31,888 nucleotides of DNA from a virus, in IMG/VR virus record IMGVR_UViG_3300009682_000001; one strand, 5' to 3'. Of this stretch, positions 1 through 31,888 are shown piece after piece. How positions within the stretch are numbered: position 1 is the first letter of the stretch; each line of letters opens with the position of its first letter. A program made the position numbers and the translations under genes. A model generated the notes under the pieces. It had not been told where the DNA came from. It made no database searches and worked only from the letters and a program-made list of their open reading frames with translations.

Positions 1-123
1 CTTCCTAGAGTCAGCAGACTACGGATTAAATGACTGGTCACCATTAGGCGGTGTATTCAAGCGTGCAGCCAAAAAGGGCATCATTAGCCGTATTGACCGC
101 CCCACTAAGCAGGCGCTGTGGAA
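1..123. repeat. Terminal direct repeat identical to 31766-31888. It reflects circular closure, assembly overlap or terminal redundancy.
   Basis: Read directly: cttcctagagtcagcagactacgg...aggcgctgtggaa is present at both ends of the window. Confidence 0.95.
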
Positions 124-2700: not shown

Positions 2701-3342
2701 TTATATATAAATCTCTTTTCTAGTCCATAGCACTGGTCCAGTAGCTGTGCGGTGTGCTACACGCGGCTCTGGGCTTATTGCTTTGCCGTGACCAGGCAAA
2801 AGGCTATCAGTATCATCATCATGGTCTATAAGGCTAGGAATGCAGTAATAAACGGGCAATCCCTGCCTACAATAGAATTCACCAATCTTATTGTCATATT
2901 GCAGCTCAATGCCCTCTACAAAGTCCAGCATTGGCTTGATCTGATTACTAGGCAGTGCAATACCTACGCCCCAGAAAAGTGTATGATGCCTAAGCCACCA
3001 TCCATCATGTGCTTTATTAACAGCAGCGGTGACGCGCCGTGCCAGTGGTCTAGCAGTGCCGGTATATAGGCTAATAAGCGTATCTTTTCTAAGCGCAGTA
3101 ATAGCATTTACCAGATTGTCATAAAAATGAGGTGTTAATATGGCATCATCCTGTATTACTACATGCCAATCACCTTTATTGATACCGGCTTGCAGCGCAC
3201 GCTTGCCAGTATGCCACTCTTCATTAACCTTATCCCATGTGATAGAAGCTTTGGCAAAAGGGTACTGCTTAAGCTCTTTGAGTAGCGCATTTGCAGCCGC
3301 TTTACGCTTAGGATGTGCCATTACTGTAACGGTAATTTTCAC
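2701..3342 (-). CDS. GT-A fold glycosyltransferase (family not resolved)
   Basis: 213-aa ORF with VVIQDDA as a DxD-like motif. Its GTG start forms a GTGA overlap with the upstream gene. Confidence 0.5.
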   Translation of the reverse strand: MKITVTVMAHPKRKAAANALLKELKQYPFAKASITWDKVNEEWHTGKRALQAGINKGDWHVVIQDDAILTPHFYDNLVNAITALRKDTLISLYTGTARPLARRVTAAVNKAHDGWWLRHHTLFWGVGIALPSNQIKPMLDFVEGIELQYDNKIGEFYCRQGLPVYYCIPSLIDHDDDTDSLLPGHGKAISPEPRVAHRTATGPVLWTRKEIYI

Positions 3343-4019
3343 TTTTCCACCGCCGCTTTTACGTTTTCAAAATCGCTTGGGTAGTCAATGTCGTTTGTTT
3401 CATCATCTATAACTATGTAATTATCAAGCCATTTTTTGTGCTTATTCATTTGGCCAATAGGTACATTTGCCATAAGCCGGGTTAATTCCCAGCCGCCTAT
3501 GCGATCAACAACATCAGCACGGTACAAATGCACCAGCCTATTAAGGCAGTACATTACAAATTCATGGTCCACCGGGTAAAAGCTTAATGCAAAGCACTCG
3601 CCATACGGGTAGTTAAAGCGCTTATTGCCCGTTGGCCGGCAAAACATGCGGTATAGCGGCGTTTCATCGGCAAGTATGGTGTCTATGGCCTGTTCAGTAA
3701 AATAAACGTCCCCATACATTACGATGGTGCGCTTTTTCTTGGCCCATAAGCTACTTGATGAAATGAATTTGTCGGCATCGTGGTTGTCGGGATTAAGCTT
3801 TGGCCGGTATGCGTGTACGCCTGGTATCTGGTAGCCTTTTGAAACGACCCAAACATCGTCTTGGCCGCGTTCAAGCAATAGTCGCACAATACGCTGTATG
3901 ATAGGCTCGCCGTTTATAACAGCATAATGCTTTGGCACGCCCATGTAGTTACCCCACCGCGTGGCGTCCCCGGCAGCAATGATTATAATTCTTGGGTTAT
4001 TTGTGCCTAAACCATGCAT
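3339..4019 (-). CDS. Nucleotidyltransferase that would activate a sugar phosphate or alcohol phosphate (NTP_transferase / cytidylyltransferase-like)
   Basis: IIIAAGDATRWG fits the AAGxGxR signature, followed by PKHYAVINGEPII and YGDVYF. GAGGT lies 8 nt upstream of ATG 4019. The track start at 4034 is a TTG. Confidence 0.6.
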   Translation of the reverse strand: MHGLGTNNPRIIIIAAGDATRWGNYMGVPKHYAVINGEPIIQRIVRLLLERGQDDVWVVSKGYQIPGVHAYRPKLNPDNHDADKFISSSSLWAKKKRTIVMYGDVYFTEQAIDTILADETPLYRMFCRPTGNKRFNYPYGECFALSFYPVDHEFVMYCLNRLVHLYRADVVDRIGGWELTRLMANVPIGQMNKHKKWLDNYIVIDDETNDIDYPSDFENVKAAVEK

Positions 4020-5400
4020 TGGTGCGTACCTCAAACTTTTTAAATAGTGACGTTACATGCCGGCCATATTCAATAGCCTCGGCATACTTGGTGTGCATTA
4101 GTTTATTAAATATGCCCATATCTGTTTGGTCCTGTGGGTATTCCAAGTGGTATTGGTACATATCTTGGCATAGGGCCATTACAAGCTTGCGCTCACCACC
4201 AACCACACCGCAATTAAGCAATGGTAGCGTGCCATTTTCACGTAGGTACCTATTAACGGTTGGCTCAAGGTGCCGTACCAACATCCACCTATTATTTAGC
4301 GTTTCAGCCGGCTCATCGCCAACATACAGCACACCCGGCTTAATGTGGGCAAATGGGTTGGCTACCATATCAACATCGGTAGCGTCCACCACGAACACAT
4401 TATTTATGTCGCGCCGGTCCCGTAGGTATTGCCACTCCTTTAGCCAGCGTTCAAAGTATGGCGTGGTTGATATGGTTACTTTATTTGGCAAGTCAAAGCA
4501 ATTATGTATTAACACAAATTCTATGCCCTTGGCCTCAACAGATCGCTTTAGCTTTTCTATCTTGGTAAAGTCGGCAGCCCATTTGGTGTTGCGTTGTGGG
4601 TCAAGTACGCCGGCAAAGTAGCAGGCTATTACAACGTCCTTGCCATAGGGTATGTATTCATTTGAAGCAGCGGCCGCGGCCAATAGCTCGTTATTCTTTT
4701 GTAGGTATGTGATCCGGTCGGCGCGTGCAATACTACTGGCCACAAGCTGGTGTTGGTCCATTGAATAAATAAGTTGCTCACTACCCACCACATCCATGTG
4801 CTTAAAAGTAGTTAGCCCGGCATTGTGTATACGGTTAGACCAGTCAAGGTGTTCATTCATGGCCTTACCATAGCGCGTGTCCATACCGCCTACCGTTGCA
4901 AGTGCCGTGCTATCAACGTACAGCATACAACCCCGGCTATGGTGGTGCGCCACAACGTTGGCGTCCTTATACACTATGGCATCGTCACCCACCGGCTTGC
5001 CGCTTGCCCAATTTTCAAACAGGTACATTAAATGGTGTTCAGGACTGGCCACGTATGGCTCATGCCAGCCCGGCTTTAACGGGTATGTATCATCGTCAAA
5101 TAAGAATATATGATCGCAGTCGCTAAGTAATTCAAGGCATTTGTTTTTGGCCCGTGCAATACCTACATTGTTTTTGAAGCGGTACACTTGCACGCCGTCA
5201 ATGGTTACTGGCTGTGCGCTGGCATCGTCCACTACTACAATTTTAGCGCCTGGTGTGTGGGCCTGTATGGTAGCAACCGTGCTGGCCACTAGCTTATTGC
5301 GGTTGTGTGTCGTGACGCCAATGCCAATGCTTTGTGTTTGCACGGCACTTGCTTTTATATAACGTTCATTGTTTATTAGTACGTCCAAGTTATGTTCCAT
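3997..5400 (-). CDS. Two-domain glycosyltransferase: N-terminal GT2 domain plus a C-terminal nucleotide-diphospho-sugar transferase-like domain
   Basis: The N-terminal part has GIGVTTHNR...IVVVDDAS...FLFDDDT (GT2 with DxD). The C-terminal part has VVDATDVDM and LNCGVVGG. Confidence 0.65.
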   Translation of the reverse strand: MEHNLDVLINNERYIKASAVQTQSIGIGVTTHNRNKLVASTVATIQAHTPGAKIVVVDDASAQPVTIDGVQVYRFKNNVGIARAKNKCLELLSDCDHIFLFDDDTYPLKPGWHEPYVASPEHHLMYLFENWASGKPVGDDAIVYKDANVVAHHHSRGCMLYVDSTALATVGGMDTRYGKAMNEHLDWSNRIHNAGLTTFKHMDVVGSEQLIYSMDQHQLVASSIARADRITYLQKNNELLAAAAASNEYIPYGKDVVIACYFAGVLDPQRNTKWAADFTKIEKLKRSVEAKGIEFVLIHNCFDLPNKVTISTTPYFERWLKEWQYLRDRRDINNVFVVDATDVDMVANPFAHIKPGVLYVGDEPAETLNNRWMLVRHLEPTVNRYLRENGTLPLLNCGVVGGERKLVMALCQDMYQYHLEYPQDQTDMGIFNKLMHTKYAEAIEYGRHVTSLFKKFEVRTNAWFRHK

Positions 5401-5648
5401 TTCTTATGACTAAAACAAGTATACAACATGGCTTGCGGCTTGGCATAGAACCCCCCACCGCACAAACAAAACATATATAATTTTTTGCAAATCAATTTAA
5501 TAATATTTTATTTTTCAATAACCTTGCAGGGGCGTCAAATAACAGGGGGGGAGGGCGCCCTTTCTTTACGCCAGCTAGACTCCGCCGTGTAAATGCCGAA
5601 TTTTGGGGGGTCTTTCTGACATTAAAATTCTGGCAGACTGATTTTAGG

Positions 5649-6179
5649 CTAAATGCGTGTCCAGGTTCTACCCTGTTTGATAGCTTTTACTATATGGTAG
5701 GTGGTATCCACTGCAGCCGCAATGTGTGTCATTGGCATATCAGTTTTTAGCAAATGCTTAATAGCTCTGGCTTTGATTTCATCTATCTTTGACTGCCAGT
5801 GTTCTGATCCGTACCGCTGATTGTTACGTCCTAGATTATAAGTGTGCTTATTATTCTGCTTGATAGTACACCACTCAAGGTTAGAGATTTGATTATTAGT
5901 TACGTCAGCATCTAAATGGTTTACAGCTGGGTAATTATTGGGGTTAGGTATGAAGTGAATGGCTACAAGCCTGTGCGCACGCCAGTATTTTGCTTTTCCT
6001 AATTTGCATAGTCTTACATACATATAGCCGTCAGTGCCGCAGTATTGCTTGAGTAATTTACCTACTCTTTTTCTGGCAACACCACCACTCATAACCATTC
6101 TAGGCACTGATCTAACTTGCCCCATGTTACTAATTTGATAGTAGCCTTTATAGCCCTCTATATCTTTCCATACTTCCAT
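5649..6179 (-). CDS. Free-standing HNH homing endonuclease (NUMOD4 plus HNH_3 plus C-terminal helix-turn-helix)
   Basis: WKDIEGYKGYYQISNMGQVRS matches NUMOD4. HRLVAIHF...VNHLD...NNQISNLEWCT..QN matches HNH_3. AGAGGT RBS is present. Confidence 0.85.
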   Translation of the reverse strand: MEVWKDIEGYKGYYQISNMGQVRSVPRMVMSGGVARKRVGKLLKQYCGTDGYMYVRLCKLGKAKYWRAHRLVAIHFIPNPNNYPAVNHLDADVTNNQISNLEWCTIKQNNKHTYNLGRNNQRYGSEHWQSKIDEIKARAIKHLLKTDMPMTHIAAAVDTTYHIVKAIKQGRTWTRI

Positions 6180-28290: not shown

Positions 28291-28408
28291 TTTTACATAC
28301 TATATAGAAATGTTTATTTAAAACATTTTTATACACTATATAGAAACACAAGAGCATAAAGCTGGTTTTACACAAGTAATCCCCAGAATTCAGGCACTTT
28401 TACACAAG
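28291..28408. repeat. Cluster of short direct and inverted repeats (candidate operators or iterons)
   Basis: A[T/C]ACTATATAGAAA occurs at 28297 and 28333. AAATGTTT/AAACATTT is an inverted repeat at 28308-28328. TTTTACACAAG occurs at 28366 and 28398. ACACAAG occurs three times. Confidence 0.7.
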
Positions 28409-28412
28409 CGGC

Positions 28413-28442
28413 TTGGCAAATAAATGCGCAAGGTGCTATATT
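28413..28442 (+). promoter_or_regulatory. Promoter of the rightward early operon
   Basis: TTGGCA, N18, TGcTATATT. GGAGGG RBS precedes ATG 28471. Confidence 0.55.
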
Positions 28443-28470
28443 GATACCACAGCAATGAATTGGAGGGATA

Positions 28471-28980
28471 ATGTCTTACAAAGTTAGTGACCAAAGAAAA
28501 CAAACAATGATTACTAAGCTAGGTGACGCGGTGGAACTGATAGACAATCAGGCTTTTTTACCGTTTTACCGGTCCATACAGATCAAGCTTGAGAAGATGG
28601 GCAGGGCTGATGAATGGGGCAAAATGATAGAGGTAGCACTTACTAAAGAGCGCCCTAGTCATTACTTTGCTAAGCTCTGTAAAATGGTCAAAGACGGCAC
28701 ATACAAATTTGTTGAAAAGGTGGCAGAGGTTGCCGGTGAGCTTAGGCTATATGTGCATGACAAGCTTATTAAGTTTGGCTTTGGTAAGTATCAGAAGTAT
28801 TGGGTGCGCAAAGCCCAGGAATTCATTAACGTAAACGGGCAGGCTGGCTTTGTAGAGCTGCTGGAATACGCTGAGCGTAAAGGTATCAATCAAAAATACA
28901 TGGCTAGGGCGCTCAAAAACTGCAAAACACCGCGCCAGTATTACCAGCAAAACGTGATCGGCGCTGGTTATAATGGCTAA
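28471..28980 (+). CDS. Hypothetical protein, first gene after the repeat array. A replication or regulatory role is only a guess.
   Basis: 169-aa ORF with a strong RBS. Confidence 0.6.
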   Translation: MSYKVSDQRKQTMITKLGDAVELIDNQAFLPFYRSIQIKLEKMGRADEWGKMIEVALTKERPSHYFAKLCKMVKDGTYKFVEKVAEVAGELRLYVHDKLIKFGFGKYQKYWVRKAQEFINVNGQAGFVELLEYAERKGINQKYMARALKNCKTPRQYYQQNVIGAGYNG

Positions 28981-29443
28981 AGGGGGCTTAGTATTCACTA
29001 AAGATAACGAATACTATACACCGCCAGAAGTTGTAAAATATTTTGGTCAGTTTGACTATGATCCTGCAACAGTGCCGGCAAAAGCAAAAGAGCTTGGAAT
29101 ACCGAACTATGATACTATTGAAACTGATGGATTAGCCCAGGACTGGACAAAATACAATCGTATTTGGATAAATCCGCCATTTACGCGAAAGCATGAGTTT
29201 TTAGCAAAGGCGGTAAAAACATACAGGTTAGCGAAGAATGAGATATATGTGCTTTTTCCTATTGAGTTTTTGACAACTAGACGCTTCCATGACATTTGTG
29301 GGGGGGGCGCATATATGTACCTAGCGGTCGTATTAATTTTCAGAGTGGTCTTGGTAAAAAGGGCAAATCACCTGCATTTGGCAGCTGTGTACTCAAGCTG
29401 CAAGAAAAATCTGAGATTGTCTTTATTGATATTAACGAATTAA
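28973..29443 (+). CDS. Phage Dam-family DNA N6-adenine methyltransferase, frame disrupted at the G8 run 29300-29307. The conserved C-terminus continues in the -1 frame to 29448.
   Basis: YYTPPEVV, DGLAQDW and WINPPF are in the annotated frame. GRINF...PAFGSCVL is in the -1 frame after the G-run. Confidence 0.75.
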   Translation: MAKGGLVFTKDNEYYTPPEVVKYFGQFDYDPATVPAKAKELGIPNYDTIETDGLAQDWTKYNRIWINPPFTRKHEFLAKAVKTYRLAKNEIYVLFPIEFLTTRRFHDICGGGAYMYLAVVLIFRVVLVKRANHLHLAAVYSSCKKNLRLSLLILTN

Positions 29444-29453
29444 AGTAGTAGTC

Positions 29454-29900
29454 ATGAAAGTACTGTTTTTGGATATAGACGGTGTTTGTAATTCAGCTGC
29501 CTGGGCAAAGCAAGGTAATAGCCTATGGCATGGCACTGATCCGCAGGCAGTAAAGCTGGTCCAGTGCATTATCGCGGCAACCAAATGCGTTGTCGTACTA
29601 TCAAGCACCTGGCGGTTATACCCGGAGGCTAAGGCAGTAGTCCGGCGCGATGTATGCAACTTCATTGACTGCACCAAAGACATGCAGGCTGGCTCTAAGC
29701 GCGGTATTGTGCCGCGCGGTGAAGAGGTGCAGGATTGGCTCAATCGTCACCCGTCAGTAAGCCAGTACGCCATACTAGACGATGATAGCGACTTTTTGCC
29801 GCATCAATGGTTATTCAAAACGACATTTGAACAGGGCATCACAGAAGAGATTGCGGATGCCGTAATCAGTCACCTAAATGCTGGGGATAAAAAGTACTAA
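29454..29900 (+). CDS. HAD-superfamily phosphatase-like protein (HAD_SAK type)
   Basis: VLFLDIDGVCN is motif I. VVLSSTWR is motif II. ILDDD is near the C-terminus. Confidence 0.6.
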   Translation: MKVLFLDIDGVCNSAAWAKQGNSLWHGTDPQAVKLVQCIIAATKCVVVLSSTWRLYPEAKAVVRRDVCNFIDCTKDMQAGSKRGIVPRGEEVQDWLNRHPSVSQYAILDDDSDFLPHQWLFKTTFEQGITEEIADAVISHLNAGDKKY

Positions 29901-29906
29901 AAAGTA

Positions 29907-29935
29907 TTGACGAACGGTCTACCGTTTTGTATTAT
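29907..29935 (+). promoter_or_regulatory. Sigma70-type promoter with a palindrome in the spacer
   Basis: TTGACG, N17, TATTAT. The spacer contains AACGGTctACCGTT at 29913-29926. Confidence 0.55.
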
Positions 29936-29969
29936 CAGTAGTAACAACCGTAAACGAATTGGAGGGATT

Positions 29970-30365
29970 ATGGGGTTGAGGGATAAGCTATTTGGCAGGC
30001 GCGAGCCTAAGCCAGTGGAAGTGCCAGCATTGTTACAGCCAGAAGACCCGGTAAACTATGACAGCGTATTGGATTGGCTACTTGGATTGAGCCAAAAAGA
30101 CTACGAGCGAATGCTTAAAGTAGTCACCATTTACCGCAACGCAAATAAAGACGCTGCAAAGGTACTTCGCGTAAAAGATGAACCCACTACCCAGCTAGTA
30201 TCAAAACGGCTTACAGACGAGCAGATAGACAGCGACTTAGATATGCTGCTGCAGACTGACCCGGATGATTTGAAAGCTGCTATTGAAAACGAGCCAGAAC
30301 CCGAAGCACCTAAAAAGGCTCAAGCACCAAGTAAAGACAAAAAGGTAGTACCAAAAAATGATTAA
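29970..30365 (+). CDS. Hypothetical acidic protein
   Basis: GGAGGG lies 5 nt upstream of ATG 29970. The track start at 29907 lies in the promoter. Confidence 0.6.
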   Translation: MGLRDKLFGRREPKPVEVPALLQPEDPVNYDSVLDWLLGLSQKDYERMLKVVTIYRNANKDAAKVLRVKDEPTTQLVSKRLTDEQIDSDLDMLLQTDPDDLKAAIENEPEPEAPKKAQAPSKDKKVVPKND

Positions 30366-31668: not shown

Positions 31669-31888
31669 TGGATGGTAAATCACAAGCCTGGCGTGATGCC
31701 GCAGACAAGCTTTTAGAAGCCCTGGCGCGTGACAATCAGTACATTGTGTCTGATATGGTCCAAATCTTCCTAGAGTCAGCAGACTACGGATTAAATGACT
31801 GGTCACCATTAGGCGGTGTATTCAAGCGTGCAGCCAAAAAGGGCATCATTAGCCGTATTGACCGCCCCACTAAGCAGGCGCTGTGGAA
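31668..31888 (+). CDS. 5' part of the hypothetical ORF that continues across the circular junction to position 163
   Basis: TAATG overlap with the previous gene. The frame is open to the window end. Confidence 0.6.
   Translation, partial: MDGKSQAWRDAADKLLEALARDNQYIVSDMVQIFLESADYGLNDWSPLGGVFKRAAKKGIISRIDRPTKQALW
31766..31888. repeat. Second copy of the 123-bp terminal repeat
   Basis: Identical to 1-123. Confidence 0.95.

Follow-up and report, generated by a model that had tools for sequence, protein, structure and literature searches.

Orphan methyltransferases of phages are usually treated as constitutive anti-restriction tools. The closest precedent for the gene described here is the bpm adenine methylase of the Bordetella phage BPP-1, whose homopolymer tract is reportedly a hotspot for frameshift mutations. 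The work of Liu et al. 2004 on this gene (J Bacteriol 186:1503) is cited in a preprint on homopolymer contingency loci in the phages T2 and T4, the loci being agt and rIIA (Gomez, Barrick and Waters 2025, PMC12633550). In Campylobacter phages of the genus Fletchervirus, polyG tracts (G7-G11) in receptor-binding genes are reported to act as contingency loci (Sorensen et al. 2021, Cell Rep 35:109214; cited in PMC12633550 and PMC12823448). In bacteria, phase-variable Type III mod genes constitute the phasevarions of Haemophilus, Neisseria, Helicobacter, and Moraxella (PMC6902483, PMC4209511, PMC7383803). Here, we analyse a run of eight guanines (G8) in the gene of a Dam-family N6-adenine methyltransferase of an uncultivated phage, IMG/VR virus record IMGVR_UViG_3300009682_000001 (31,888 nucleotides (nt); this whole stretch is called the window in the following). 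Based on a comparison of the gene with its relatives we consider it likely that the G run is a slippage-prone contingency (phase-variation) site in an orphan methyltransferase gene, and that the window represents the OFF allele.

According to this explanation the tract would gain or lose G during replication of the phage DNA, and these changes would be reversible within a lineage. Given the flanks TGT-Gn-CGC, nine guanines (G9) would encode the full enzyme of 158 amino acids (aa), and both G8, the length found in the window, and G10 would shift the reading frame after Gly112 and replace the last 46 residues. The benefit would be that of a bet-hedge. Methylated progeny would escape restriction-modification systems cutting the unmethylated site, and unmethylated progeny would evade methylation-dependent restriction or be spared the cost of making the enzyme.

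As encoded, the Dam-family open reading frame (ORF) covers positions 28973-29443 of the plus strand, starts with MAKGGLVFTKDNEYYTPPEVV, and specifies 156 aa including the motifs YYTPPEVV, DGLAQDW, and WINPPF. With 48.1 bits, it matches the Pfam family PF05869 (profile positions 23-97; cut-off 28.1). Its N-terminal 111 codons, G tract included (28973..29307, plus strand), contain YYTP as well as NPPF at residues 67-70. The latter fits the catalytic-type motif (D/N)PP(Y/F/W) and is invariant in 29 and in 45 aligned homologues. This part shares 88-95% identity with the corresponding N-terminal regions in the sister lineage P0001 and the sub-lineage P0121. The frame is broken by the G8 homopolymer at 29300-29307 (plus strand; context TGT GGG GGG GGC GCA), for which the in-frame length between the TGT and CGC flanks is nine. 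The C-terminal 46 codons (29308..29448, plus strand; RIYVPSGRINF...SPAFGS, stop codon at 29446-29448) lie in the -1 frame with respect to the N-terminal part, and this frame reads RIYVPSGRINFQSGLGKKGKSPAFGSCVLKLQEKSEIVFIDINELK from position 29308. The G8 allele itself continues after ...RRFHDICGGG with a hydrophobic out-of-frame tail, AYMYLAVVLIFRVVLVKRANHLHLAAVYSSCKKNLRLSLLILTN (29308..29443, plus strand; stop codon at 29441-29443). Adding one G (G9) results in an ORF of 158 aa, and removing two (G6) in one of 157 aa. The coordinates, motifs, G run, -1 frame, and stop codon given in the preliminary description of the locus were exact, and its proposal that G9 or G6 would restore a single ORF of about 158 aa turned out to be correct for both lengths. 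The out-of-frame tail stays open for 44 codons and ends 5 nt ahead of the true stop, probably by chance. A function of this tail as an alternative C-terminus is unsupported: other OFF alleles have shorter, unrelated tails that vary in length and sequence.

A search of 5.8 billion protein clusters revealed 1225 homologues of the repaired protein, the best of which show 89% identity across its full length of 158 aa. The homologues read C-G-G-G-R-I-Y-V-P-S-G-R-I-N-F continuously through the site of the tract, which shows that both halves belong to a single gene interrupted precisely by the G run. A complete PF05869 domain is not present in a single frame of the window, whose C-terminal 46 codons need one added G, and the window copy is thus a frameshifted allele of a member of this family. 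The gene had been proposed to encode a small phage Dam-type N6-adenine methyltransferase, and this assignment is sustained by the PF05869 matches above the cut-off and by the homologues spanning the junction. The joined 158-aa sequence as repaired with G9 scores 52.4 bits, and its match extends from profile position 23 to 134. Similarly, the -1 frame peptide had been taken for the conserved C-terminus of the family, which agrees with its conservation across the junction in the homologues; the 50-aa C-terminal peptide searched alone against Pfam did not give a match. A megablast search with positions 28400-30000 against 50,697 phage records found no match and the nearest Dam members of cultured phages are only about 30% identical, so that there is no annotated near relative. 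The G8 run is the sole G/C homopolymer of at least eight nucleotides in the window, in line with the earlier remark that it is the longest one, and is followed by a G7 at 5545-5551. By estimate, about 0.26 G or C runs of eight or more are expected in 31.9 kb at the base composition of the window, and a single G8 is not rare on its own. What goes beyond chance is that it coincides exactly with the frame break in a conserved gene and recurs at the same site in relatives.

The consequences of the frameshift can be judged from an AlphaFold model of the P0001 protein, which is 89% identical to the repaired window protein (predicted local distance difference test (pLDDT) 87, predicted template modelling score (pTM) 0.84). 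In this model, the glycine tract is located in a loop ahead of the strand 113-117, and the 46 residues downstream build at least three core strands (113-117, 138-142, and 148-152). The residues P117, G119, R120, F123, S125, G126, and S133-P-A-F-G-S138, all following the tract, are invariant in the family. A Foldseek search against the PDB retrieved class I S-adenosylmethionine (SAM)-dependent methyltransferases, several of them adenine-N6 enzymes (TrmM, METTL5, RlmJ), at probabilities of 0.93-0.99 but template modelling (TM) scores of only 0.37-0.51. The predicted fold is that of a class I SAM-dependent methyltransferase. A sequence search of the PDB with the family profile was discarded, its only results being chance matches to phosphoglycerate kinase with E above 0.4. 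Because the lost part holds three core strands of the model and the invariant GRINF and SPAFGS, the G8 product with its last 46 residues replaced should be inactive.

G runs are harder for sequencers and some of the contigs have a coverage of only about 3x, and it could thus be supposed that the true sequence is G9 and the gene intact. However, the identical 156-aa G8 product is encoded by at least 15 contigs, which stem from independent samples of JGI, ENA, and Logan and were built with different assemblers; near-full-length contigs of 31.9 and 32.0 kb are among them. The sub-lineage P0121 (IMG/VR contig L001), which has 97% DNA identity to the window, is present on at least 13 further contigs, all of which read G8, which brings the total for this allele to at least 28 contigs, and these represent many samples, sequencing centres, and assemblers (megahit, SPAdes, JGI, Logan). 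In contrast, at least 18 contigs of the sister lineage P0001 have a G9 although the P0001 sequence after the tract is identical and the upstream flank only a few substitutions apart. Because P0001 is consistently assembled as G9, the sequencing does not systematically lose a G at this site. A homopolymer error, which the preliminary description had still considered, is therefore very improbable and effectively excluded. The G8 allele is real and is the consensus state of the window lineage in every sample in which the lineage was found. The window and L001 differ at 17 positions, all of which fall into one patch of 34 nt (window 29017-29050, gene positions 45-78). In L001 this patch encodes KSVIDYFGS as in the L002 lineage, which looks like a recombination mosaic.

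Relatives were fetched by N-terminal peptide patterns that are independent of the tract (80 IMG/VR loci and 15 loci from genome collections), and the reading frames of their N- and C-terminal parts were compared for 79 distinct junction sequences. A run of G7-G12 is present at the site in 31 of these (39%), and 16 of the tract-bearing junctions are in frame and 15 out of frame. Of the 48 junctions without a long run a single one is out of frame, and that one is a visibly decayed pseudogene (Fisher p=7e-7 versus the tract-bearing junctions). Altogether, 63 of the 79 are in frame. In an independent set of 169 protein-cluster representatives, 27 quit the family frame directly after GG or GGG. Length polymorphism is also found between near-identical genomes. 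The variant P0122 (121 aa, from two separate samples) belongs to the P0001 lineage but has a G10 and is OFF, with the same flanks as the window tract; compared to a G9 contig it has five substitutions and one extra G over 818 aligned nt. Thus, G9 and G10 are both present in the sister lineage, whereas the window lineage reads G8 on all its contigs. The ON/OFF contingency option of the preliminary description is well supported by this comparison, given that runs at the same site occur in divergent relatives and about half of them are out of frame.

A change of a single G turns all of the 16 distinct OFF alleles into an ORF of 150-161 aa with the conserved C-terminus, and a second lesion is found in none of them. 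This argues against a recently fixed null allele, by which the tract would be a mere mutational hot spot where a dispensable methyltransferase has been knocked out and is now decaying, and reversible switching would not be selected. The ratio of nonsynonymous to synonymous substitution rates (dN/dS) between the window and the P0001 lineage points in the same direction, with a value of 0.032 for the shifted C-terminal frame compared to 0.047 for the N-terminal part, at a saturated dS of about 1.6. On balance we regard such a null allele as unlikely.

The persistence of G8 as consensus with an intact downstream frame would also be expected if the G8 allele still yielded some full-length enzyme, either by RNA polymerase adding a G or by a -1 ribosomal shift on G GGG GGC, so that the frameshift in the DNA would lower but not abolish expression. 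Long homopolymers can cause transcriptional slippage, and G_GGG_GGC at 29302-29308 formally fits the zero-frame pattern X XXY YYZ. However, the well-documented cases of bacterial transcriptional slippage involve A/T runs, and a stable RNA structure is not found downstream: the fold of the 131 nt from 29290 to 29420 has z=+0.52, and 134 of 200 shuffled sequences fold at least as well, so that a structured -1 frameshift signal was dropped as a candidate. In addition, genes with programmed frameshifts have a fixed shift, whereas most relatives of the window gene are in frame, and +1 and -1 corrections are required with about equal frequency among the OFF alleles. Of the attributes of a programmed -1 frameshift only the heptamer is thus present, and the stimulatory structure and a conserved out-of-frame arrangement and direction are missing. 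Ribosomal or transcriptional slippage, another option of the preliminary description, is therefore unsupported as the main mechanism and quite improbable, but might contribute as a leak. A split enzyme with a separately translated C-terminal part is unlikely as well. The sole start codon would be a TTG at 29296, a Shine-Dalgarno sequence is not visible by eye, and ribosomes in the zero frame do not terminate nearby.

The contingency explanation would further require that the run is kept beyond what is needed to encode three glycines. GGG is the rarest glycine codon and accounts for 7% of 447 glycine codons in the window ORFs and for 18% in the N-terminal parts of the family. The codon registers in which the run is read differ between relatives (TGT-G9-CGC, GTA-G8-CAAG, TGG-GGG-GGG-GTG, and TTG-GGG-GGG-GGT). 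In a tree of 77 tips the tract has a scattered distribution that implies at least 15 gains or losses, and OFF alleles are interleaved with ON alleles. A distant subfamily (L076, L077, and L078) does not have a tract at the usual site but has a G10, G9, and G8, respectively, near residue 87 (YYDRT-Gn-VYM), about 250-270 nt into the Dam gene, and none of the three copies is in frame. The tract of this subfamily is of independent origin within the same gene. One Dam homologue, L044, has two tracts, a G8 in a 5' extension (2968-2975) and a G9 at the usual site.

G/C runs of at least eight nucleotides are found 29 times in 36 kb of Dam genes versus six times in 414 kb of flanking phage DNA, which corresponds to an about 55-fold enrichment. 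None of 42 A/T runs of this length is located inside a Dam gene. All six G/C runs in the flanks fall into DNA methyltransferase genes as well, namely the Dam 5' extension, four C5-cytosine methyltransferase genes (PF00145), and one gene of the N6_N4 type (PF01555); the positions of the five non-Dam runs are L006:4937-4945, L040:2758-2767, L052:3924-3931, L057:2542-2549, and L078:2232-2239. In L006, the frame of the C5-cytosine methylase breaks at the G9. Genes homologous to these additional methylases occupy only about 2.5% of the flanks. In about 450 kb of related phage DNA, each of the 35 long G/C runs thus falls into a gene for a DNA methyltransferase (Dam, C5, or N6_N4). A search for relatives of the C5 methyltransferase of L057 found only the L057 gene itself. 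Because GGG codons are scarce, the registers vary, a second site exists, and the runs are enriched over the flanks and limited to methyltransferase genes, the run itself appears, as far as sequence comparison can tell, to be maintained by selection beyond the coding of Gly-Gly-Gly. Neither plain purifying selection nor plain decay would preserve a hypermutable run, and a tract far commoner than predicted by codon usage, which arose at a second site and is restricted to methyltransferase genes, is difficult to reconcile with a null allele. An ORF-internal repeat in which the gain or loss of one unit changes the frame, the presence of both ON and intact OFF alleles, and a tract that is kept beyond coding need are among the marks of a contingency locus, and these three are found here.

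It could be speculated, with less confidence than for the Dam gene itself, that DNA methyltransferase genes (PF05869, PF00145, and PF01555) in a broad set of uncultivated phages generally carry poly-G tracts and that these tracts are under selection. Phage populations would then carry randomly varying combinations of modifications, a combinatorial epigenetic bet-hedge against restriction-modification systems and methylation-dependent defences, and the G8 of the window would be one of the OFF states. This generalisation is possible but somewhat doubtful.

Several observations weigh against a selected switch, especially in the window lineage itself. In this lineage only G8 has been seen, on at least 28 contigs, which is why plain pseudogenisation is the main rival here. 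A G9 version of the lineage is not present among the 5.8 billion protein clusters, where the best match to the repaired protein is the one of 89% identity; in a search with the N-terminal part as query only the G8 cluster ranks above P0001. The sequences downstream of the tract are identical in both G8 sub-lineages, from which it follows that little time has passed since the frameshift, as would be expected for a recent null allele. The contig sets for the G8 product and for P0001 were fetched by exact protein matches, which forces a single allele per set, and one length-neutral DNA pattern scan of metagenomes retrieved only six contigs, too few for allele frequencies. Any switching of the window lineage is deduced from its sister lineages. 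Also, genuine decay or truncation is seen in some relatives (L064, L073, L075, L080/L081, and L096), and the gene is therefore dispensable and sometimes simply lost. L064 combines a long G run with a deletion following GRIN, and rearrangements have truncated L073, L080, and L081. L075 has at least two breaks, one of them at an A7 run, and L096 contains multiple stops. Finally, singleton OFF alleles on metagenome contigs of low coverage could include homopolymer errors.

The first and last 123 nt of the window (1-123 and 31766-31888) are identical, which makes the window a complete phage genome of 31,765 bp that is circular or terminally redundant. It encodes a portal and a capsid protein, a tape measure protein, an amidase endolysin, a large terminase, and a LysM-CHAP protein. 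An integrase did not turn up among the about twenty ORFs that were scanned. Immediately upstream of the methyltransferase gene is a gene for a protein of 169 aa (28471..28980, plus strand; ATGGCTAA) without a Pfam or PHROG match. It overlaps the start of the methyltransferase gene by 8 nt, and both are therefore probably co-translated; the order of the two genes is kept in the sister lineages. A HAD-like gene (HAD_SAK_2, PF18143; 29454..29900, plus strand) starts 6 nt after the methyltransferase stop codon and belongs to the same operon. Elsewhere, the window contains a Methyltransf_24-domain protein without a G run (1768-2316), a glycosyltransferase / nucleoside triphosphate (NTP)-transferase operon on the minus strand (3339-5400), and a homing endonuclease with NUMOD4 and HNH_3 domains (5649-6179, minus strand). 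The intergenic region 5401-5648 upstream of the operon includes the G7 at 5545-5551, a G6 at 5605-5610, and a C6 at 5451-5456, and could be a second variable site, located in a promoter region.

With respect to possible hosts, four of the 15 genome-collection matches to the Dam family (L089, L092, L094, and L095) are from Candidatus Saccharibacteria bins, which provide three of the five tract-bearing ones. L094, a G10 allele and thus OFF, is located on a contig of 157.8 kb, which suggests a prophage. Within the 3-kb flanks, other genes common to the window and these 15 loci were not found.

If the methyltransferase gene is switched at random, a phage burst would be a mixture of methylated and unmethylated genomes, which would change how host range and the escape from restriction or Type IV defences are to be modelled. 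It would also explain the "broken" methyltransferase genes in metagenome assemblies that are annotated as hypothetical or as pseudogenes. Contingency loci, which have only recently been recognised in phages, would then extend to the modification of the genome, and a general rule is suggested by the finding that long G runs in these phages are limited to three methyltransferase families that are unrelated to each other. A literature search yielded neither a report of poly-G tracts in phage Dam genes of the PF05869 family nor one of a confinement of such tracts to methyltransferase genes across phages.

Compared to the known systems, the protein resembles other members of the PF05869 Dam family in its profile score above the threshold, its NPPF motif, and its size of about 155-160 aa. 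It differs in its distance to the nearest cultured-phage members and in that the window copy is not contained in one frame. With dnaX and the transposases of insertion sequences (IS) the locus shares a slippery or homopolymer run that joins two frames encoding one protein. In those genes, however, neither the out-of-frame layout nor the direction of the shift varies among relatives and a stimulatory element is usual, whereas the Dam relatives are mostly in frame, deviate in both directions, and have no structure that could be found. The phasevarions share a simple sequence repeat within the ORF of a DNA methyltransferase, whose gain or loss of units switches the gene ON and OFF at random. However, the phasevarion mod genes are located on bacterial chromosomes, are usually part of restriction-modification systems, and control regulons of the host. 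The window gene, in contrast, is an orphan methyltransferase gene of a phage, and the target of selection is likely the modification state of the phage genome. More similar are the contingency loci of phages, where homopolymer runs in ORFs generate progeny with heterogeneous frames as a bet-hedge. The Fletchervirus tracts affect receptor binding and those of the T-even phages agt and rIIA, whereas the tracts described here are confined to DNA methyltransferase genes.

Most similar of all is bpm of BPP-1, likewise a phage orphan adenine methyltransferase gene with a G8 inside the ORF and upstream of a C-terminal AdoMet-type motif. In the BPP-1 genome (NC_005357) this G8 is found at gene positions 585-592 and is the sole homopolymer of at least eight nucleotides. 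Judged by reading its sequence, Bpm has a DPPY...DPFAGSGTT layout and is thus of the N6_N4 type (PF01555), whereas the window gene belongs to PF05869. The phages are different as well, BPP-1 being a temperate podovirus of Bordetella with 65% GC and the window a siphovirus-like uncultivated phage of 31.8 kb with 45% GC. In contrast to bpm, the tract of the window gene is conserved and polymorphic across a large family, in which it is found at two independent sites.

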